Below are positions 25,031 through 34,755 of a DNA stretch of 64,000 bases, piece after piece. Numbering within the stretch: position 1 is the stretch's first letter; each line of letters begins with the position of its first letter. Source of the stretch: an uncultured Alphaproteobacteria bacterium (GTDB taxonomy: Bacteria > Pseudomonadota > Alphaproteobacteria > HIMB59 > GCA-002718135). The notes under the pieces were generated by a model, which ran no database searches, had not been told where the DNA came from, and saw only the letters and a program-made list of their open reading frames with translations. A program made the translations under genes and the position numbers. The stretch is from positions 300 through 64,299 of the forward strand of contig CACGRD010000003.1 of assembly GCA_902575375.1 (NCBI GenBank), in the 5' to 3' direction.

Positions 25031-26089
25031 TTATAATTTCTTTGCTGCACTTGTTTCTTTAATATTAGTTAGCTTTGTATATCTATCTATCATCTGTGTT
25101 GTCTTATGACCGCTTTGAGCCATAATTTCATGAGTGGGTACTCCATTCATTCTAGCTTGAGTAATTGAACCTATTCTTAGGCTATGACCAGAAATTTTAT
25201 CACAATTTTCTATTCCTGCGTTTTCAGCTCTTTTCTTTAAAATTAAAACAAAACTTGTGTCAGTTAAACTTACTTTTTGATTTTTATTATTAAGAATATA
25301 TTTTTCTATATTGTTAGCTTTGTTAATTTTATAAAAGAGTGGGCCTGAATCAATTAATGCTACCTCTAACCAATTCTTTAACGCAGATACGGGACAATAA
25401 GGTGAGTTATTTTTAGGTAAATAGATCATTCTACCTTCACCTTTTTGATCAGTTTTAGAGAAAGGAATTAAAACCTGAACTCCATCATCTTCAAAATTTA
25501 AATGTTCATATTTCATGCCTAACAACTCTGATCTTCTGCAAAAACTATAAAAACCAATTAATATTAGAGCTTTATCTCTTATGTTTCTAAAATCATCATT
25601 ATTATCTGGAATTTTATTAATTATTTTTTCAATATCCACTTTCAAAAGCTCTTTTGCTTGGCCAGATTTGTTATTTTTTTCATCTCTTACAATTGCACTT
25701 ATTGTTTCTGAGATGTTTGGATTTTTTCTATCAAATTGAAAACCATTAACTCTATATTTATAAGTTATAGAGGCTAAAATTCTTTGTATAGTCGAGGCTT
25801 TATAAGCAGATGAAGAGTAGGGGTTATTATTTAATTTTTCCCTTCCAGGAATATTGCTTGTGCCCTTTAATATTTTTGCTTCTGGATCTTCATGAAGCCA
25901 ATCCATATAATTAGCAGTTAACGCGTATGCACTTTCTAAATCATCAACATCTAAAGGACTGCAATTGTATTTATTTTTGCAATAATCTATAAACTTTAAC
26001 CAATCTCCTTGATATTTATCCTGAGTATTTTTAGCTTTGGATTTTTCCTTTAGCTTACTTACGTTTTCATTTAGTGATATTTTAACCAT
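25031..26089 (-). CDS. int: tyrosine recombinase / phage-type integrase
   Basis: Catalytic pattern R (FCRRSELLGM), H-x-x-R (GHSLRIGS) and H...Y (GHKTTQMIDRYTK). Confidence 0.85.
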   Translation of the reverse strand: MVKISLNENVSKLKEKSKAKNTQDKYQGDWLKFIDYCKNKYNCSPLDVDDLESAYALTANYMDWLHEDPEAKILKGTSNIPGREKLNNNPYSSSAYKASTIQRILASITYKYRVNGFQFDRKNPNISETISAIVRDEKNNKSGQAKELLKVDIEKIINKIPDNNDDFRNIRDKALILIGFYSFCRRSELLGMKYEHLNFEDDGVQVLIPFSKTDQKGEGRMIYLPKNNSPYCPVSALKNWLEVALIDSGPLFYKINKANNIEKYILNNKNQKVSLTDTSFVLILKKRAENAGIENCDKISGHSLRIGSITQARMNGVPTHEIMAQSGHKTTQMIDRYTKLTNIKETSAAKKL

Positions 26090-26250
26090 ATTATATATTA
26101 CGATAATTACAGTTATCGTAAATAATAGTCAAGTGATAAATATTATAACTATAAATCAATAATTTATATACATTATTTAATTCTATTTCTAATATTACAA
26201 ACTAGATATAGATTTTCACGTGTAATAAAATACTGTATATAGTGTATAAA

Positions 26251-26973
26251 ATGGAACAATTACCGCAGGTTTCAGCTGATTCCCAGATCTTTGTATTAAC
26301 GGGTGCCGGTATAAGTAAAGAGTCTGGGATTGAAACATTCAGAGACTCTGATGGGCTTTGGAACAATCATAGGATTGAGGATGTTGCTAGTCCCGAAGGA
26401 TTCTATAGAAACCCTACTCTTGTCTATGATTTTTATAATAAACGTCGAAAAGAACTAAATTCAGGAATTAAGCCAAATAGAGCCCATATTCTTCTTCATG
26501 AATTAGAAAAAACATATAAAATTCATATAGTTACACAAAATATCGATAATTTACATGAGATTGGAGGATCATCATCAATAATTCACATGCACGGTGAACT
26601 AAATAAAGCGCGATGTATCATGAATGATAATCATGTATTTGAATGGCTAGAGGACCTAAATGAGACCCATAAATGCCCTAAATGCGGCTCTCAAATGAGA
26701 CCTCACATTGTATGGTTTGGTGAAATGCCCATGCAAATGGATGAAATTCATGACTTAGCTGAGCAATCCAGTCTATTTGTTTCTATAGGCACTTCAGGAC
26801 AAGTCTACCCTGCTGCCGGTTTCGTTTCGATGTTTAAAGATATGCGCAAACCAACAATTGAATTAAATCTGGAGCCATCAAGTAATCAAGATCAATTTGA
26901 TTTTGCCATTCATAAACCTGCTACAGTTGCTGTTGAAGAATTTAAAAATTTATTAATAAAAAATATTAAATAA
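26251..26973 (+). CDS. cobB: NAD-dependent protein deacylase, Sir2/CobB family
   Basis: GAGISKESGIETFRDSDGLWN, VTQNIDNLHE, catalytic HG (HMHGEL), Zn-ribbon cysteines (C-x...-CPKC) and IGTSGQVYPAA. The track ORF starts at GTG 26242. Confidence 0.9.
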   Translation: MEQLPQVSADSQIFVLTGAGISKESGIETFRDSDGLWNNHRIEDVASPEGFYRNPTLVYDFYNKRRKELNSGIKPNRAHILLHELEKTYKIHIVTQNIDNLHEIGGSSSIIHMHGELNKARCIMNDNHVFEWLEDLNETHKCPKCGSQMRPHIVWFGEMPMQMDEIHDLAEQSSLFVSIGTSGQVYPAAGFVSMFKDMRKPTIELNLEPSSNQDQFDFAIHKPATVAVEEFKNLLIKNIK

Positions 26974-27055
26974 TTTTTATTAACGTTATTAAATTTTTGT
27001 ACACGATTAAATTTTTTCTCATATTAAGAATCAGAAAGAGTTTTTTTATGAAGTA

Positions 27056-27511
27056 ATGATGAATAAAAAATCAGAATCTTTTAATATTGCACGACATCAA
27101 TACATAAAAGGGTATCAAGATAAGAATGAACACATCTTCCCTACTCTCGATCTTGTTGCAAAAGAATTTAGTTTAACTTTATCTACGTTACGTAAGAAAG
27201 CGGCTAATGAAGGATGGTATAAAAAAAGAAAACAATATCAAAATGTTAAAGAAGAATATGAAATGCGTAGACAATTTAAAGGAAAGTATTCAAAATTAGC
27301 TCAAATATCGAGAAATACCCTTGTCTTTGTTGAATATTTTCAAACTGAAATACACAAAGAAATAATAGAAGAAAAAAAGGGTAAAAAAATACATTCTATA
27401 GAAGATAAACAACGCTTAATTACTATGACTCAAAAAATTCAACGCTTATCAAAAGAAGCAAATGACACTTTAACTGATATTGAAAACCCTCTTAATGAAC
27501 TTTTAGATTGA
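27056..27511 (+). CDS. HTH-containing protein resembling a phage small terminase / DNA-binding protein (weak call)
   Basis: LDLVAKEFSLTLSTLRKKAANEGWYKKRK looks like the N-terminal HTH of small-terminase-type proteins. The C-terminal half is coiled-coil-like. Confidence 0.35.
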   Translation: MMNKKSESFNIARHQYIKGYQDKNEHIFPTLDLVAKEFSLTLSTLRKKAANEGWYKKRKQYQNVKEEYEMRRQFKGKYSKLAQISRNTLVFVEYFQTEIHKEIIEEKKGKKIHSIEDKQRLITMTQKIQRLSKEANDTLTDIENPLNELLD

Positions 27512-27644
27512 TTTTAATCAATATATTTATTTTTCTGGTAAACTTCTGGGCTTAGTTATTTTATCAAAGTTTTTGTAAAAGTACTCATATAAACTTTTAA
27601 GATCTTTTAATTTTTCATTGTCGTCCATAATTTCTCTTAGTATT

Positions 27645-30293
27645 TTATTTTTTGAAGACTGTTATTATCTCTTTAAATGAGTTTGGAGTTATTTTTATTT
27701 TATTCCATATTTCCTCTTTAACATATAAATAATCCCAAATTCTGCCAGTAGTTTCAGATGCATCTTCACACCAAGTTTTTAATCTTTCAATTTTTCTAGG
27801 ATCATCAATATTTTCTGCTCCTTTTGTTTCTACAACCCACATGCTTCCATCAGTAAGTTTTATAGTAAAATCAGGAAAATAGTTTCCGATACTGCCATCG
27901 TTTTTTATATAACTAATTTTAAAATTTAATTGCTTAAAATTTTTAACAAATGATCTCACATCAGTAGTTGCATCTAAAAATTCTGCAAATCTTAATTCAA
28001 AATTTGAATCACCGACAATTTTATTGAATACCGATTTTTTTGCTGGCAAATATTCGTTTGTTCTTGGTACGCTAAAAGTTTTTGTTTGCCCAACTTTGAT
28101 ATAATCTACTATTTCTGTAGTTCCAGTATCTTTAACAGTTAACTTATTTATATATTCTTTAAAAGTTTCAATTATCGATCTTCTTACTTCAGTTTCACTA
28201 AGATTTCTTGCTACATTAGGATTATCTAAATCAACTTTTTTTTCAAAAAGAATATTTTGCATAAAAAATTTAACTTTTTCATATAAAATATCTTGTCCGC
28301 CAAATAATCTCATTTCACTCATGATTGATTTTGTAAAAAAAGATACAATAGATGATGAGTTTATCATTAATTCATCACTTACTTTAATTTCATAAGCAAC
28401 TTCACCTTCTAACATATATCTAAATACAAAATTTTTCTGGTCATCTTCTGTAAATTCTTTTAATTTTAAAGATTCAAAATTAAAGTTTTTAGGATTTAAT
28501 TCACTAAGATTGTTATAATTTCTTTGAATACGTGGAGTTAATACAGGTATTTGCAAATCTAATTTATCTAAATCCTTAGTTCTATCTACCTCAATAATTG
28601 TCGGACCTGATGATTCAGAAGTATTCCCCATTGATCTTTTCTCTAGAACAACTCCTTCTGATTTAATACTTTCTACAAAATCTAAAAATGCATCAGTGCC
28701 AACTACATTCAATTCTTCTGAAAGACTTTCTCCAAAATACATTCTTCTCAACCCTCGTCCCAATGTTTGTTCAGGAAGAATATTTGATTTGGCAGAATAA
28801 GGTCTAAGACCAACTACTGTTGTTACGTTTTTTACATCCCAGCCTTCTTTAAGCATTAACACAGATACAATAGCTTTAATGCTGTTTTGGTTAGAGTCAA
28901 CTTTGTTAGATAAATCTCTTAACTCTTTCAGTTCTTTTTGACTTTTTGATGAAACGCCCTCTTCAATTCTCCCTTCTTTGTTAGTATGAATAACGAATGT
29001 ACTATTTTTTAGTAATGGAAAATTATTTTCTAAATATTGTTTAACATCATCACAATTTTTTGTGTCATCAACCATTACAAAAAGTAATGCTTTTTTTCCA
29101 AGTTTAGAATGTTTTTCAAAGTCTTGTTGCCAAACTGTTACGCCTAAATTTATATAATCTCTAAATCTCTCAGAAAATTTTGTTGAAGTTTTTTCACTTA
29201 ATTTTCCTCTACTTGCTTCATCAGGAAGAACTGGTTTTTTAACTACCTCTTGAGCAATTGCTTCTACAAGAGGATAATCCGAAACAGTTTGTATAAAAAT
29301 ATCTCCATTTTGGTGTTTCGGAGTAGCTGTTACATCAATTTGGATACTGATTTTTTTTCCTTTTTGAATTAAATTATTATTTATATTTTCAATAGTTTTT
29401 GCCCATTGCATCGATGAATCATGAATATGGTGCGCTTCATCATTTAAAACCACTATGTCGTCTAATTGATTAACAATATATTTTACAAAAACTTTATTAT
29501 CTATTGTTTTAGCTTTTGGTTTTTCTCCTAAAAAATAATCTTTTAGATCACTATTATTTTTTAATTTTTTCTTTCTTTCTGAAAATCTTTGAATATTTGT
29601 TAGAAAAATGTTTCCTTCACTAGATAGATTATAAATATCATCTTGAATATATACTTTAACTTTAAAATCATTTTTCCATAATTTATTATCATAATTATTT
29701 GATGGAATAATTGGGTCTTGATTAAATATTTTTAAATCATCAAAATCAGCTTTCAATCTATCAAGCACAATTGTATTAGGTGCAATTATTAAAAAGTTTT
29801 TTGATAATTTAGAGTCATTTTCATATTGTTTGTTAAAATAACACCACGCTAGTAATAATGATAAAACTTTCGTTTTTCCTGTACCTGTTGCTTGTTTTAT
29901 TATTAATCTTAACCATTGCTCCTCAAACATTGATGGAAGAATGACTCCGGATGAATCATATTTTATTAAATCAGTTGGATTTACAATTTGTGCGACTTCA
30001 TATAAATAAATAATTGTTTCTACTGATTCTCTTTGGGCAAAATAATAGTTAAAGTCATTTTTGTGAGGTGTCTTAAACCAATATTCCAATAAAGATTTTG
30101 ATGTACTTGATACATTTGGGTAATTTTTTTTTCTCCATTCAAATACTTCTTTTCGAATTTTAGTTACTAGTGGCGCTAAGAGTTTTTCTCTAGCTCTGTC
30201 TCCTAAACTTTCATCTCCTGGAAACCATCTCACGTCAGGGTTGATTATATTAAACGGAGATTTTGGAAAATTTTTATTTAAACCCATTTTCAA
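27645..30293 (-). CDS. res: Type III restriction enzyme Res subunit (SF2 helicase plus C-terminal PD-(D/E)xK nuclease)
   Basis: Motif I QATGTGKTKV, motif II LNDEAHH, motif VI-like QTLGRGLRR, and a C-terminal nuclease motif YFPDFTIKL...WVVETKG. Confidence 0.85.
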   Translation of the reverse strand: MKMGLNKNFPKSPFNIINPDVRWFPGDESLGDRAREKLLAPLVTKIRKEVFEWRKKNYPNVSSTSKSLLEYWFKTPHKNDFNYYFAQRESVETIIYLYEVAQIVNPTDLIKYDSSGVILPSMFEEQWLRLIIKQATGTGKTKVLSLLLAWCYFNKQYENDSKLSKNFLIIAPNTIVLDRLKADFDDLKIFNQDPIIPSNNYDNKLWKNDFKVKVYIQDDIYNLSSEGNIFLTNIQRFSERKKKLKNNSDLKDYFLGEKPKAKTIDNKVFVKYIVNQLDDIVVLNDEAHHIHDSSMQWAKTIENINNNLIQKGKKISIQIDVTATPKHQNGDIFIQTVSDYPLVEAIAQEVVKKPVLPDEASRGKLSEKTSTKFSERFRDYINLGVTVWQQDFEKHSKLGKKALLFVMVDDTKNCDDVKQYLENNFPLLKNSTFVIHTNKEGRIEEGVSSKSQKELKELRDLSNKVDSNQNSIKAIVSVLMLKEGWDVKNVTTVVGLRPYSAKSNILPEQTLGRGLRRMYFGESLSEELNVVGTDAFLDFVESIKSEGVVLEKRSMGNTSESSGPTIIEVDRTKDLDKLDLQIPVLTPRIQRNYNNLSELNPKNFNFESLKLKEFTEDDQKNFVFRYMLEGEVAYEIKVSDELMINSSSIVSFFTKSIMSEMRLFGGQDILYEKVKFFMQNILFEKKVDLDNPNVARNLSETEVRRSIIETFKEYINKLTVKDTGTTEIVDYIKVGQTKTFSVPRTNEYLPAKKSVFNKIVGDSNFELRFAEFLDATTDVRSFVKNFKQLNFKISYIKNDGSIGNYFPDFTIKLTDGSMWVVETKGAENIDDPRKIERLKTWCEDASETTGRIWDYLYVKEEIWNKIKITPNSFKEIITVFKK

Positions 30294-31005
30294 TTACCTC
30301 AATAAATTTTTTAAAAGAACATAAAATTCCATTTGTAGGCGGTTGTCCTTTCTCTAATTTATTTATTTGTTCAATACTAAGTTTAAAAACATAACAATTA
30401 CCAGTTAAATCTAATTTTGAACCAACTTTTTTTAATGTGTTTGCACACACCATATACAAATCAATATTTAAATCTTCACAGTCTTTTACAATTCTCCGTA
30501 AAGACCTTGCTCCATAAATACCTTTCCAAGAAGGTCTTCGATTAATTTTTGAAATTAATCTTTCTGCCTCATGCTTGTTTTTAAATGGCATATAAAATGT
30601 TGTAAATTCAAATCCCTTCCATCCATTTGAACTTTTAAAAACATAATCTATGTCAACTGTATAATAATCATTATTATTTTTAGATAATGTAAATTCCATC
30701 AAAGATTTATATTTGCCATCTATAAGAAATTGAAGTTCGTGATAATTTGGATAAAGTTTTTGATTATTGGATTTAAAATCTAAATATACAAAAGGTATAC
30801 CTTTTTGACTTTTAGGTAAATTTTTTATATCTGAATTAATTTCATTTTTTTCTAATACATAAAATACTGTTCCATTATCAATTATTTTTCCTAAACAGAT
30901 TATATTCAAAATATTTTTCTTTCCATATTTTCTTGAAAGATCAGTTGATATATCTATTTCGATTTTTCCTATAGAATTTACATATGAGGGTATCGCTTGT
31001 GGCAT
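30274..31005 (-). CDS. uncharacterised 243-aa protein encoded between mod and res
   Basis: The ATG lies 2 nt after the mod stop (TAA-TC-ATG), and the 3' end overlaps the res start by 14-20 nt. I see no TM segment and no motif I recognise. Confidence 0.7.
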   Translation of the reverse strand: MPQAIPSYVNSIGKIEIDISTDLSRKYGKKNILNIICLGKIIDNGTVFYVLEKNEINSDIKNLPKSQKGIPFVYLDFKSNNQKLYPNYHELQFLIDGKYKSLMEFTLSKNNNDYYTVDIDYVFKSSNGWKGFEFTTFYMPFKNKHEAERLISKINRRPSWKGIYGARSLRRIVKDCEDLNIDLYMVCANTLKKVGSKLDLTGNCYVFKLSIEQINKLEKGQPPTNGILCSFKKFIEVIENGFK

Positions 31006-31007
31006 GA

Positions 31008-33206
31008 TTAAATTTTAACCTCCATTACTTTCATTGTATCATTTCCAAAAATATCAACCACCTTTACAGCAACTTTAGTTTTATCTTTTTTTATTTCTAT
31101 TTTTGAAGATATAAGATCTATTTTTTGATTTTTTTTTGTTCTAAATGATTGCCATTCATTTTCAAAAATATAATTTCCAGTCCAAACTTCTTCAATTTTT
31201 TCATCTTTCTTAAACTTTATTATTTCTGGTTTTGATTCAAAATCAAAGTCTACTGACCAATAATCAATCCAATCATACCAATTTTTTGTTAATATATCTC
31301 TTTTTATTACACCCTCTTTACTTTTAGCAACCCTTATAATATTCCCTGCTTCAGCAATAATTTTGCTACTTCCATTTTTAAGTTCCTCATCAATTCCTAA
31401 ATTATTTTCATTATAAAAAACTGCAAAATCTGTTAATTCAATTGATAAAAGATTTTTTTTTATTATTGGCCTAAATTCAATTGCCGCAACTTCAAAAAAA
31501 ACAACTTTCCCTTTTTTAACTGCTTCAACATCAAAAATGTCCATTGGAATTTGTTTATAATTCAATCTAAGTCCTTGTGATTTTGCCTCTTCTTGAACGG
31601 AGGGAAAAAGTCCCATTTCATATTCAAAACCCAATATATCAACGCTAGTGATATTATTTTTTAAACATTCTTTAATTACTTCTTCAACATGATGTCTAGA
31701 AAGACTCTGGTTAATTGGACCCAAAGAAACAAGAGTACTTCCTTTTTTACCTTTTATAGTTAAAAAACCACTTATTTTTTCGGCTTTGTATGCATCTAAA
31801 ATTAATTTCTCAAATTCTTGTTCTTTTCTTTTTTTATGTAATAGTTTAATTTCATCTCTTTCAGTTAATCCATCGTAAATATAATATTGTCTTTGATATT
31901 TACCTAAATTTAATAATTCAAATGCTCTCCAATTTTTTCCATCTTTTTTTAATTTTCTTTGGGTGGTAATTAATCTTTTCTTTGTTACATGTATTGAAAA
32001 TTTACCAATATCAGTAACTAGCCATTTTCTATTTAAATTTTCACAAACATTTGCAGTTGTTCCACTTCCATTAAAAAAATCACACACAATATCATTTTCA
32101 TTAGTGCATGCCTTGATTACCCTTTCTAAAAGTTGTGTTGAATTTTCAGTTGGGTAACCAGTTGAAAATGAATAACCTGGAATATCTGTCCAATTAGTAT
32201 CAATAGTTCCTGTTGATGAAGCTTCTACTAAATATTGGACTTTATTTGTTTTACTATTAATTCTTAGTTTTCCTTGTTTATATAGTTCATCCATTCTTTC
32301 TTGACTAAACTTGAAATGACAACCTTTTCTTGCATAAAAAGTTTTACCTTCCACAATTCTGCTTGGAGAACCAGAAACTCCAGCAGAATCATCTGTTGCT
32401 CTCCAATAACTCTCTCTTTTTTTGTCTAATTCATATTCTGTATTTAAATAAAAAAACTCTTCAGATTTTGAGTAGACATATAATGATTCTACACCTGATA
32501 GTAATGCTAATTGTTTTGTATTTTTAGTTACATTTTTTTTTGTTCTATTAATTACAATTTCATTTCTGAAATTATTAAAACCAAATATTTCGTCCAATAT
32601 ACCTTTTACATAATGTCCCCAATGAAAATCTATTCTCAATACTAATACACCATCATCTCTTAATAATTCTTTCATTAAATAAAGTCTTTCATACAGCATT
32701 TGTAAAAAACTATTTCCTTCTCTATTCCAGGTATTTCTGTATGCAAAATTTTCTATTACAGATGGCTCTTTATTAAATATTTCTCCATCTCCAATTGCTA
32801 CATCGATTGTATAATCTTGACCAACACTAAAAGGAGGATCAATGTATATAAGTTTAACTCCTCCCTCACTTTCAATCTCATTTCTCATAGGGCCATTTTT
32901 AATTGAAGATAAAATATATTTATTATCACCCCAAATTAATTTATTAGACCAACCAGCATTTTGTCTTCCTGATACAAAATCAAAAGAACCTTGAAGAAAT
33001 TTTATATTTTCATCTCTTGGTTCGTCTACTTGTTCAATGATCTGAAATGGAAGTGATAAATTTGAAATTTCATTTACTTTATTATTCCAGGTAATCTCTA
33101 CTTGTCTTTTTTCTCCAAATAAAAGAAATCTATATTTTTCTGGTAAATCTTTTCCTTCTTCAAGTAATTTTACTATATCTCTTTTTTCATTATCTGTAAG
33201 TTTCAT
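31008..33206 (-). CDS. mod: Type III-like DNA methyltransferase Mod (beta-class N6A/N4C) with a long C-terminal extension
   Basis: Motif IV YIDPPF at residues 121-126 precedes motif I FFNGSGTT at 377-384, which is the beta-class order. About 320 aa follow the methyltransferase core. Confidence 0.85.
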   Translation of the reverse strand: MKLTDNEKRDIVKLLEEGKDLPEKYRFLLFGEKRQVEITWNNKVNEISNLSLPFQIIEQVDEPRDENIKFLQGSFDFVSGRQNAGWSNKLIWGDNKYILSSIKNGPMRNEIESEGGVKLIYIDPPFSVGQDYTIDVAIGDGEIFNKEPSVIENFAYRNTWNREGNSFLQMLYERLYLMKELLRDDGVLVLRIDFHWGHYVKGILDEIFGFNNFRNEIVINRTKKNVTKNTKQLALLSGVESLYVYSKSEEFFYLNTEYELDKKRESYWRATDDSAGVSGSPSRIVEGKTFYARKGCHFKFSQERMDELYKQGKLRINSKTNKVQYLVEASSTGTIDTNWTDIPGYSFSTGYPTENSTQLLERVIKACTNENDIVCDFFNGSGTTANVCENLNRKWLVTDIGKFSIHVTKKRLITTQRKLKKDGKNWRAFELLNLGKYQRQYYIYDGLTERDEIKLLHKKRKEQEFEKLILDAYKAEKISGFLTIKGKKGSTLVSLGPINQSLSRHHVEEVIKECLKNNITSVDILGFEYEMGLFPSVQEEAKSQGLRLNYKQIPMDIFDVEAVKKGKVVFFEVAAIEFRPIIKKNLLSIELTDFAVFYNENNLGIDEELKNGSSKIIAEAGNIIRVAKSKEGVIKRDILTKNWYDWIDYWSVDFDFESKPEIIKFKKDEKIEEVWTGNYIFENEWQSFRTKKNQKIDLISSKIEIKKDKTKVAVKVVDIFGNDTMKVMEVKI

Positions 33207-33384
33207 TCTTTATTATTTATAAGAATATCATTTAAGAAATTATTCAACAATCATGTTTTAATATTTATTCATCTGTAATGTTGAAAAGATTTGTTGGCTA
33301 TTAATTAAGTTTAACATTTCACTTTTCAAATTTTATTATTTGTCAAAAAGTAAAAAGTACATCGTCTTAGATTATTAATTTGTA

Positions 33385-34149
33385 TCATATACCTGATTTA
33401 CGGTATATACAATGTTTGCAGTTTGGATTTTGATCTGGAATTTTATGATTATCTAATGTTTTTTTAATATTTAAAATTGTTTTATCAACCCAAGAATAGT
33501 CTCCTTCATAGGATAAAATATCAATTTTAAATTTTAACTCTTCATTAAAGTTTTCTATATTTTTGTAATATGCACTGCAAAATACAAAATAGGCTGTTGT
33601 AGAAACATCAAAGCCATTTTTATTAAACAGCCATTGATAAAATTCAACTTGTTTCTTATACCAATATTTATGAGGAGCCCCTTTCTCATCTAATGAGGCA
33701 TCTAGAGGTTCATTTGTTTTTTTATCATATGATACTGTTGTACTTTTATAATCAGCAATAAAAATTTTACCATTATTGTCAGTCCAACAATCATCTATTG
33801 CGCCGTATAATAGAAAATTAGTATTAGTATCGTGATACTTTATTCCTTTACGGTTATTTTGCCAATCTTCAATTTTATCATGCTGATAAGGAATTAAATC
33901 TATACCATGCTCTTTACAGTATGGGTGAATAGTTTGTGTTTTTCTGTATTTATCAAATTCATTTTTAAGTAATTTATCCAAAGCTGTTGGAATATATGAC
34001 ATTGGTCCTGATGGACGGGCTATGCGATATTTTTCTGATCGATCAATATAAAAACAACGTGGACATTGTAAAAATAAATCAACCTTGCTTCGACTAAGCT
34101 CAAAAGATTCATTTTGACCGGTAATATAAAGTGATTTTTTTTTTGCCAT
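33385..34149 (-). CDS. PD-(D/E)xK nuclease of the Cas4/RecB-like family with four Fe-S-type cysteines
   Basis: N-terminal CPRC, GAIDD...IFIADYKST (D...D-x-K), QVEFYQWL (Q-x-x-x-Y) and C-terminal CKHC. Confidence 0.7.
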   Translation of the reverse strand: MAKKKSLYITGQNESFELSRSKVDLFLQCPRCFYIDRSEKYRIARPSGPMSYIPTALDKLLKNEFDKYRKTQTIHPYCKEHGIDLIPYQHDKIEDWQNNRKGIKYHDTNTNFLLYGAIDDCWTDNNGKIFIADYKSTTVSYDKKTNEPLDASLDEKGAPHKYWYKKQVEFYQWLFNKNGFDVSTTAYFVFCSAYYKNIENFNEELKFKIDILSYEGDYSWVDKTILNIKKTLDNHKIPDQNPNCKHCIYRKSGI

Positions 34150-34193
34150 AAATATTTATTTTTATTTATATTTTAAATAAATCAAATAACAAT

Positions 34194-34493
34194 CTAACTA
34201 TTTTTAGATTTTATATATAGAATTAGTGGTACAATAAATAAAAAACCAAAAAGTAAGAAAATTTTTATAACTAACTCTAACACCCAAGGTGCATTCATAT
34301 ATTCATCTATACAGATATCTTGTGCAGTTCCTTGATCACTATAAACAAAATTATTATCTACGCTTTGACAATATTCTAAAGCATTTTCAAATACTGGTGT
34401 ACTTGGACTTTTATGAACAAACAAAGAGTTTAGAGCTATAATAGAGATTACAACAGGTGTAATTAAGAAATAAAACCAGAAGTTATTAATCAT
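34194..34493 (-). CDS. small 2-TM membrane protein with a Cys-containing loop, unknown function
   Basis: Hydrophobic ends. It overlaps the upstream ORF by 8 nt and lies on the same strand as the nuclease, mod, X and res genes. Confidence 0.5.
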   Translation of the reverse strand: MINNFWFYFLITPVVISIIALNSLFVHKSPSTPVFENALEYCQSVDNNFVYSDQGTAQDICIDEYMNAPWVLELVIKIFLLFGFLFIVPLILYIKSKNS

Positions 34494-34755
34494 ACAAATG
34501 AAAATAATTTAATTTAAATGACCAGGTAGATGTCACAAGACAGAGAAAAAACATAACATACAAAACTTCTTTTTGAAATTCTGGAGCTTCTTTTTTCTTA
34601 AAATGTAAATAATAGAGCCATGATGCTATAATTATAGAAATAAATAAGAATAATCCGCTTTGTAGATATTCAAATTCTATATTGATACTAAAAGATAAAG
34701 CTAAAACGATAAAATAAGATGTTAAAAATAATATAACTCTTGATAAGGACTCCAT
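34486..34755 (-). CDS. small 3-TM membrane protein, unknown function
   Basis: Hydrophobicity pattern only. It is the first gene of the same-strand run. Confidence 0.5.
   Translation of the reverse strand: MESLSRVILFLTSYFIVLALSFSINIEFEYLQSGLFLFISIIIASWLYYLHFKKKEAPEFQKEVLYVMFFLCLVTSTWSFKLNYFHLYD

Follow-up and report, generated by a model that had tools for sequence, protein, structure and literature searches.

A methyltransferase-linked gene family with a predicted PD-(D/E)XK-like fold in the cargo slot of a Type III-like restriction-modification cassette

What does a third, uncharacterised gene do between mod and res of a Type III-like restriction-modification (R-M) operon? The question is raised by a stretch of 64,000 nucleotides from an uncultured alphaproteobacterium (contig CACGRD010000003.1, assembly GCA_902575375.1; this whole stretch is hereafter called the window), on the minus strand of which a methyltransferase gene (mod) and a restriction gene (res) enclose an open reading frame (ORF) of 243 aa, here referred to as X. 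An earlier note, made on the letters of this DNA, had considered the third protein to be either a specificity, assembly or control component of the enzyme or a separate effector attached to it. Our analysis favours the latter. With moderate confidence, we regard X as an optional, horizontally exchanged accessory effector, most likely a metal-dependent nuclease of PD-(D/E)XK type, which occupies a cargo slot of the Type III-like system.

The three genes are tightly packed in the 5'-to-3' order mod, X, res, and the ORFs described in the earlier note, together with the 2-nt gap and the 14–20-nt overlap that separate and join them, were all confirmed. The cassette has the following features:

31008..33206, minus strand: mod, 732 aa, a beta-class N6-adenine-type DNA methyltransferase with a C-terminal extension of ~300 aa that is found family-wide
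30274..31005, minus strand: X, 243 aa, basic (isoelectric point 9.3), a new family with a predicted PD-(D/E)XK fold
27645..30287, minus strand: res, 880 aa, a superfamily 2 (SF2) helicase-type ATPase with a C-terminal PD...ExK nuclease
31019..31023, minus strand: a Shine-Dalgarno-like GGAGG that precedes the X ATG by 13 nt and is part of the mod 3' end, read from the sequence
30274..30287, minus strand: the 14-nt overlap, ATGGGTTTAAATAA, shared by X (3' end) and res (5' end), likewise read from the sequence
30297-30300, minus strand: GAGG, 9 nt upstream of the res ATG
27643..33308, minus strand: the transferable three-gene cassette, as delimited by blastn homology borders against related marine contigs

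At the first junction, GGAGGTTAAAATT-TAA-TC-ATG, the mod stop codon (31010-31008) and the X start codon (31005-31003) are 2 nt apart. The second junction, TTGAAAATGGGTTTAAATAA, contains the X stop codon (30276-30274), and its overlap comprises 14 nt with ATG 30287 as the start of res and 20 nt with TTG 30293. The ATG aligns with the starts of homologues and was used here; the alternative TTG would yield an ORF of 27645-30293. A mod-X-res arrangement with the same geometry (2–3-nt gap, 10–14-nt overlap) recurs in L010, L017, L021, L024, L042, and L047 (L numbers denote the loci collected for comparison), and L010, L017, and L021 share the 14-nt overlap between X and res. Given the 2-nt gap, the Shine-Dalgarno-like site within mod, and the 14-nt overlap, X would share a transcript with mod and res and probably also be translated along with them, so that the co-translation proposed earlier is plausible. 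Neither terminator-like sites nor hairpins were found by a scan of 27000-34600, and the search for promoters gave no information in DNA so rich in AT (40 promoter-like sites vs. 51 expected).

The two flanking genes identify the system as Type III-like. Mod is of the beta class, with motif IV (DPPF, residues 123-126), a target recognition domain (TRD), and motif I (FNGSG, 378-382, within FNGSGTT, 378-384) in this order, and is homologous to characterised Type III Mods; it belongs to PF01555 (Pfam N6_N4_Mtase, E = 4e-34; PADLOC MTase_III, 273 bits). Its best sequence match in the PDB is the Mod subunit of EcoP15I (4zcf_A, E = 9e-15), and Mbo45V and Mods of H. pylori were matched as well. Res joins an SF2 helicase-like ATPase to a PD-(D/E)XK nuclease, with the motifs GTGKT at 137, DEAH at 285, TAT at 322, QxxGRxxR at 509, and PD806...E820-T-K822. 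The motifs that had been read from both proteins are thereby verified, which does not apply to the view that Mod is atypical at this locus: its layout is common to the whole family, whose members have ~700-770 aa, and its N-terminal part aligns to EcoP15I Mod. Res matched Pfam ResIII (1.5e-17) and RE_endonuc (7.5e-9), PADLOC REase_III with just 76 bits, and the NCBIfam family BPTD_3080 only partially (304 bits, under the cut-off of 800 bits); no PDB sequence was matched at E ≤ 1e-3. Compared to the canonical Type III enzyme EcoP15I (Mod2Res), the cassette thus has a homologous Mod, a Res with helicase and C-terminal PD-ExK domains, and the order mod then res in common, but it differs in the third gene between mod and res, in the C-terminal extension of Mod, and in a Res that lacks a sequence match to solved structures and stays below the BPTD_3080 cut-off.

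X itself had no match in Pfam, NCBIfam, or PADLOC, with the Pfam threshold relaxed to E ≤ 10, and neither a single-sequence nor a profile search of PDB sequences gave a real match. A connection to DUF4391, which the earlier note had raised by way of methylase/DUF4391/helicase triads, was not borne out: 45 members of the X family matched no Pfam family at E ≤ 1, DUF4391 included, and what these triads have in common with the cassette is only the layout (a methylase, a small unknown gene, and a helicase). The family is small. A word-indexed search of 5.8e9 proteins returned 12 clusters, all of ~240 aa and 31-82% identical, and an exhaustive profile search of 1.84e9 representatives yielded 58 homologues, 42 of them with E ≤ 1e-10. 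Overall, the homologues have ~240 aa and range from 20 to 100% identity. All are publicly named "hypothetical protein", which applies to the named carriers Neisseria elongata, N. subflava, Pseudomonas aeruginosa, and Photobacterium piscicola as well as to an identical or near-identical X deposited under Candidatus Pelagibacter sp. Pattern-based genome scans for X gave one locus each and were not used as an estimate of frequency; they under-count the family, as shown by the named homologues in Pseudomonas and Photobacterium. Among close cassettes, the ratio of nonsynonymous to synonymous substitutions (dN/dS) was 0.19-0.23 for X, 0.04-0.09 for Mod, and 0.07-0.11 for Res; X is under purifying selection, which is looser than that on Mod or Res. 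Homologues, dN/dS, and the recurrent junction geometry identify X as a real gene and not a chance ORF.

Two clusters of the protein databases mix X with longer proteins. X (243 aa) shares its 90%-identity cluster with 880-aa Res proteins, one of which is the representative, and a cluster of X proteins linked to bacteriophage exclusion (BREX) systems includes a member of 952 aa. Gene calls that overlap or are fused where X meets res probably account for this mixing as an artefact.

The genomic context of X was analysed in 54 loci, which represent 32 lineages at 95% identity. The earlier note had proposed to ask whether homologues always sit between a beta-class methyltransferase and an SF2/PD-ExK protein; they do not, since four arrangements were found in addition to BREX operons and minimal gene pairs. 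The order mod-X-res is present in the window and, with close homologues of Mod and Res, in L010-12, L017, and L021-24; X follows res in L003, L013-16, and L025-26 (mod-res-X), precedes mod in L009 and L027 (X-mod-res), and is convergent with res, with overlapping 3' ends, in L005-8. A second Type III lineage (~27% identity) again shows mod-X-res, with a 3-nt gap and a 10-nt overlap (L042, L047). At least 593 genome stretches, drawn from many phyla, encode a Res homologue, and the absence of X was assessed in the 80 best of these loci, in which Res is 46-67% identical. None of the 80 carries X, as a search of their ORFs with the X profile gave no match at E ≤ 10 (positive control: 55 matches). 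L027 is related to the window at ~80% DNA identity (Mod 81%, Res 78%): its mod and res abut, the window segment 30289-31006 is exactly missing, and an X with 47% identity to that of the window lies upstream of mod. Because X is absent from the 80 Res loci, because its slot is empty in L027, and because it occurs in four positions or orientations, it is not an integral subunit; X is an optional plug-in of methylation-based defence systems and not a core subunit of the Mod-Res enzyme.

X is also mobile. When the same pairs of cassettes were compared, synonymous divergence (dS) of X was 0.07 vs. 0.93 and 0.98 for mod and res in L022, and 0.40 vs. ~1.1 in L017. In L021, X is 100% identical to that of the window, whereas Mod and Res share 91% and 86% identity. 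As dS of X lies far below that of its neighbours, and an identical X is found beside diverged Mod and Res proteins, we conclude that X was recently exchanged between diverged cassettes. On the broad scale, X co-diverges with Mod and Res (rho about 0.5-0.67). No region of Mod or Res, the TRD included, stood out in the co-variation with X (rho 0.51-0.67 throughout), and there is hence no evidence for a TRD-specific partnership. Homology of the whole cassette at the nucleotide level is restricted to 27643-33308 (blastn vs. L021, L022, L017, L024, and L010), and the eight flanking proteins of the window found no tblastn match in any X locus. Since homology ends at 27643 and 33308 and the flanking genes do not travel along, the mobile unit is the three-gene cassette.

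The place that X takes in the window is used by many other genes. Both Mod and Res could be identified in 70 of the 80 Res loci (L133-L212); they abut in 30, and other cargo lies between them in 40 (57%). This cargo comprises one to four genes per locus, is found with either gene order, and falls into ~40 unrelated clusters. Its families include Schlafen/AlbA_2 with HATPase_c_4, KilA-N/Bro-N, DUF3800, RhuM, OLD-like AAA_15/AAA_21, Mrr_cat, PIN, HEPN, nSTAND3, Fic/DOC, NYN, and HepT, as well as the PADLOC models IetA, PDC-S05, S13, S22, and S23, and many cargo genes are without a listed match. Genes embedded in defence operons have been described as having this same repertoire. Within the slot cargo (51 ORFs), DUF4391 does not rank among the 25 most frequent families. 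In this widespread Type III-like family, the junction of mod and res serves defence genes as a general cargo slot and, being occupied in more than half of the loci and often by unnamed genes, is a good place to look for new ones.

A DNA methyltransferase is the one constant in the surroundings of X. In 28 of 28 dereplicated lineages with a full-length X and a readable flank, a methyltransferase gene is adjacent to X or separated from it by res alone; the remaining four of the 32 lineages are uninformative, consisting of very short contigs or truncated remnants. Twelve of the 28 are Type III, eight are type 3 BREX, seven are PglXI-only or too short to be classified further, and one has a gamma-class partner, a 971-aa enzyme with NPPY. 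Homologues with 31-43% identity adjoin a PglXI-type PF01555 methyltransferase, and eight lineages lie within complete type 3 BREX operons (BrxF-BrxC-PglXI-BrxHII-PglZ-BrxA). X is inserted between BrxC and PglXI in L038, where it overlaps both neighbours, between PglXI and BrxHII in L034, and at the same place in the type strain Neisseria elongata ATCC 25295 (BrxF-BrxC-PglXI-X-BrxHII-PglZ-BrxA). In these three loci, as in the window, X is flanked by core genes on both sides. The BREX proteins of N. elongata and L034 are 79-84% identical, the X proteins just 62%. Furthermore, three lineages with long flanks (L001, L020, and L044-46) contain X and a PglXI-like methyltransferase alone, with neither BREX or Res genes nor defence-system partners, and can be regarded as self-sufficient pairs; the pair in L001 is convergent, as in many Type II systems, and the upstream neighbour in L044 is a mannitol dehydrogenase-type gene. 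Start/stop overlaps of X with its partner genes recur in unrelated systems (L038, L044, L029, and L047). The constant partner of the X family is therefore a DNA methyltransferase, be it a Type III Mod, PglXI, a stand-alone PglXI-like enzyme, or, in one case, a gamma-class enzyme, and that this partnership holds without exception in Type III, type 3 BREX, and two-gene settings sets X apart from generic cargo and suggests that X functionally depends on the methyltransferase. Neither the occurrence of the family in type 3 BREX and minimal pairs nor the use of the mod/res junction as a cargo slot was part of the earlier note.

Some loci contain further traces of the family. Fragments resembling X (L034:9143-9789) lie just upstream of the intact X of L034 (9953-10723) and look like a decayed tandem copy. 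A truncated X of 145 aa (L051:3791-4228, profile positions 2-129) is located among small ORFs on a 6.1-kb contig, on which no methyltransferase was found with profiles of PglXI, Mod, and Res; it is the sole X remnant seen outside a methyltransferase context. In L001 (4423-6338), the neighbours of the pair of X and PglXI-like methyltransferase include a P63C-domain protein, SSB, a PDDEXK_3 protein, and an IS1595-family transposase, which suggests that the pair is carried on a mobile element.

What kind of protein is X? The statement that it contains no recognisable motif holds for a Walker A/P-loop motif, which is absent, and for helix–turn–helix (HTH) or other regulator domains, none of which were detected by Pfam scans. 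It does not hold for a nuclease motif, as X has a conserved, non-canonical acidic cluster in a predicted PD-(D/E)XK-like fold. Across 45 sequences, down to 18-20% identity, E52, N57, D118, D120, E133, T136, and N189 are near-invariant, and E52, D118, D120, and E133 are retained in 42-44 of them; the signature of the family reads E52, N57, D118-x-D120-Y, E133-x-[TS]-T136, [RK]157, N189, and N203. AlphaFold2 predicted X to be a single-domain alpha/beta protein (predicted local distance difference test score, pLDDT, 89.4; predicted template-modelling score 0.88), and the model of P0010, a protein with 33% identity to X, shows the same order of secondary structures (pLDDT 85.8). For both models, the top lists of Foldseek consist almost entirely of members of the PD-(D/E)XK superfamily, each match being individually weak: HincII, RecU/PrfA, the nuclease domains of AddAB and RecB/RecBCD, Exo5, MGME1, DXO1/Rai1, the DXO-like domain of eIF3d, bunyaviral cap-snatching endonucleases, Cas4, Hjc, EcoO109I, and MunI. 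D118-x-D120 and E133 are located on consecutive predicted strands, which corresponds to the geometry of the D...(D/E)xK hairpin. X is thus probably a metal-dependent nuclease of divergent PD-(D/E)XK type, with a fold call that is consistent but statistically weak and a catalytic activity that we infer. The N-terminus (M-x-Q-x-x-P-x-Y-P, residues 1-10, 30976-31005) is strongly conserved, yet it was modelled with a pLDDT of 36-68, and this peptide may be a short docking peptide for a partner protein. X does not stand in for a dead Res nuclease, a possibility that we considered and rejected, since PD806/E820-T-K822 is intact in every X-bearing locus examined, i.e., invariant in seven of them.

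Several points weigh against an accessory nuclease of this kind. The PD-(D/E)XK assignment has no sequence-profile support, and none of the Foldseek matches in the PDB and BFVD was significant (best E = 5e-3; TM-score ≤ 0.48, mostly 0.2-0.3). Moreover, X does not match the canonical D...(D/E)xK, because the Lys is missing from E133-x-T135: its position is taken by T or S in 44 of 45 sequences, and the nearest conserved basic residue is R/K157 (42 of 45). With the catalytic Lys absent and only this displaced residue kept, X could be a non-catalytic relic of the fold. PD-(D/E)XK enzymes without this Lys exist, such as BamHI and BglII, so that its loss in X is compatible with nuclease activity. 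Several of the top matches (DXO, cap-snatching enzymes) act on RNA, so that the substrate may be DNA or RNA. A further objection concerns the host. The sites of Type III Mod and BREX methylases are asymmetric and typically become marked on one strand alone, and because of this one-strand methylation, a simple Type II-like X that is blocked by methylation is hard to square with the survival of the host after replication. Finally, the census of X was mostly taken from short metagenome contigs.

X is not needed for building the Mod-Res enzyme. As an accessory nuclease, it would supply methylation-based immunity with a second nuclease activity, one that is independent of a helicase. Its activity might be tied to the partner methyltransferase in two ways: either the methylation mark of the host would shield its own DNA from X, or X would dock on the methyltransferase and borrow its DNA recognition. 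The second option can be taken further. X may be a portable "restriction head", which would attach to PF01555-type methyltransferases (Mod, PglXI) as a helicase-independent nuclease subunit and use their target recognition; we consider this possible but rather unlikely. If true, it would turn a lone methyltransferase into a two-gene R-M system, provide type 3 BREX with a DNA-cleaving arm, and represent a new R-M architecture common to several system types. We know of no settled account of how type 3 BREX stops phages.

Equally tentative is the reading that X is a self-contained defence gene, such as a modification-dependent Type IV-like or an abortive-infection nuclease, which rides in the slot independently of Mod, Res, and PglXI. 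Clearly autonomous modules (Schlafen, PIN, HEPN, Mrr_cat, Fic, HepT, IetA, and PADLOC PDC candidates) fill the slot in 40 of 70 related loci, genes embedded in BREX or Hma loci are able to defend alone, like BrxU and the HEC systems (10.1101/2024.01.29.577857; PMC12707154), and X is swapped independently of its neighbours. In contrast to typical cargo of this kind, X was never found free-standing, accompanies a methyltransferase in all 28 informative lineages, minimal pairs included, and overlaps its partners at start or stop codons in unrelated systems.

The missing Lys leads to another alternative, in which X is a non-catalytic sensor or regulator derived from the PD-(D/E)XK fold that binds a nucleic-acid or nucleotide signal or modulates the activity or expression of Mod or PglXI. 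Inactive sensor domains with a restriction endonuclease (REase) fold have been proposed for BrxHII of type 3 BREX (PMC12839542), and the conserved N-terminal peptide of low model confidence (M-x-Q-x-x-P-x-Y) fits a docking motif. In contrast, the four acidic residues, near-invariant over 20-100% identity, form the pattern of a metal-binding active site and not a degenerate one, and no HTH or other regulator domain was found. We regard a sensor or regulator as improbable.

Even less can be said for X as an integral third subunit of the Type III enzyme with a role in specificity, assembly, or control, the other half of what the earlier note had considered. The tight coupling in the window and six other mod-X-res loci from two Type III lineages (~27% identity) and the broad co-divergence with Mod and Res would fit such a subunit. 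It is made very unlikely by the 80 Res loci without X, with mod and res directly abutting in 30 of them, by the empty slot of L027 with its 47%-identical X further upstream, by the placement of X after res or convergent to it, and by its service to BREX and lone methyltransferases. Least probable of all is a selfish, free-standing homing-type endonuclease that spreads by cutting X-less methyltransferase loci and plays no part in defence, since the precise presence/absence polymorphism at a gene boundary, the low dS of X relative to its flanking genes (recent lateral spread), the varying insertion points, and the faster evolution of X are outweighed by purifying selection across phyla and three or four host systems, translational coupling to host genes, the lack of tblastn matches in 50,697 phage and 72,556 plasmid records, and the difficulty of imagining one target site common to Type III mod/res, BREX, and gamma-methylase loci.

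Returning to X as an accessory effector, its kind is already known. Accessory nucleases nested in methylation-based immune operons include PrrC in EcoprrI and BrxU in BREX (PMC12707154), and a 2026 survey (PMC12839542) reports that, of all auxiliary effectors nested in BREX or related loci, standalone PD-(D/E)XK REases are the most prevalent. Like these, X is small, has a predicted REase fold, and is optional among the core genes of a methylation-based operon; unlike these, it matches no existing nuclease profile and is also found in Type III operons and minimal pairs, always by a methyltransferase. The accessions of X members from cultured strains were not found in the supplement text of that survey, as far as it was accessible. 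Guilt-by-embedding, by which genes were validated experimentally for Hma, was applied to BREX, DISARM, and Type I R-M, but not to Type III systems (10.1101/2024.01.29.577857). X resembles the HEC/PDC systems found in this way (Payne et al. 2024) in being nested in immune operons, and other cargo of its slot matches PDC-S05, S13, S22, and S23. It differs from them in being absent from the PADLOC v2 models and in its lack of free-standing homologues in this sample, of which typical embedded systems have many. PrrC of the Type Ic system EcoprrI is likewise encoded by an accessory nuclease gene nested in an R-M operon, where it acts as a functionally coupled backup (PMC12707154). PrrC, however, is a tRNA nuclease of ABC-ATPase type, and X has no P-loop and another predicted fold, so that a guarding role would be purely hypothetical; the combination of an ABC-ATPase N-domain and an anticodon-nuclease C-domain that marks PrrC-like guards is not found in X, which has no Walker A, PADLOC, or Pfam match.

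Type II REases (HincII, EcoO109I, and MunI) offer a fourth comparison. They share with X a size of ~240-260 aa, fast-evolving orphan sequences, weak structural matches, and an adjacent or convergent methyltransferase gene (L001, L044). On the other hand, X reaches TM-scores of just 0.1-0.25, it lacks the Lys of (D/E)xK, none of the REBASE-derived REase profiles in PADLOC matches it, and its partner methylases are Type III or BREX-type enzymes.

The X family itself is unnamed and part of none of the three published lines on embedded effectors. What is modestly new is a single module common to Type III R-M and type 3 BREX, together with a highly occupied slot in the Type III-like family; for a specialist, the overall finding is coherent rather than surprising. 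A protein listed elsewhere just as "hypothetical protein" gains an identity, a signature, and a testable hypothesis, and one exchangeable module links Type III restriction-modification to type 3 BREX. The main published embedding survey left out Type III systems, which adds weight to the slot described here. With family members in Neisseria elongata ATCC 25295 and Pseudomonas aeruginosa, both available as cultured strains, the function of X is directly testable. The host of the window belongs to SAR11/Pelagibacteraceae: one of its conserved proteins (568 aa) shares 97% identity with single-cell genome AG-893-M20 and 84-87% with Pelagibacteraceae. In terms of ecology, SAR11 is a marine bacterium that is streamlined and abundant worldwide, and the cassette represents a defence unit that it acquired horizontally.

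Regarding the surroundings of the cassette, the 64-kb window contains no tRNA genes. A Cas4-like PDDEXK_1 protein of 254 aa is encoded at 33385-34149 on the same (minus) strand, 178 nt upstream of mod; as none of the related loci keeps it together with the cassette, it is probably an island gene in its own right. On the other side lie a tyrosine integrase (25031-26089, minus strand), a SIR2-family protein (26242-26973, plus strand), which is probably CobB-like, as it has no PADLOC match, and an ORF of 151 aa (27056-27511, plus strand). All four were excluded as members of the system, none being conserved with the cassette. The segment from 25031 to 27511 may mark the border of a variable genomic island.

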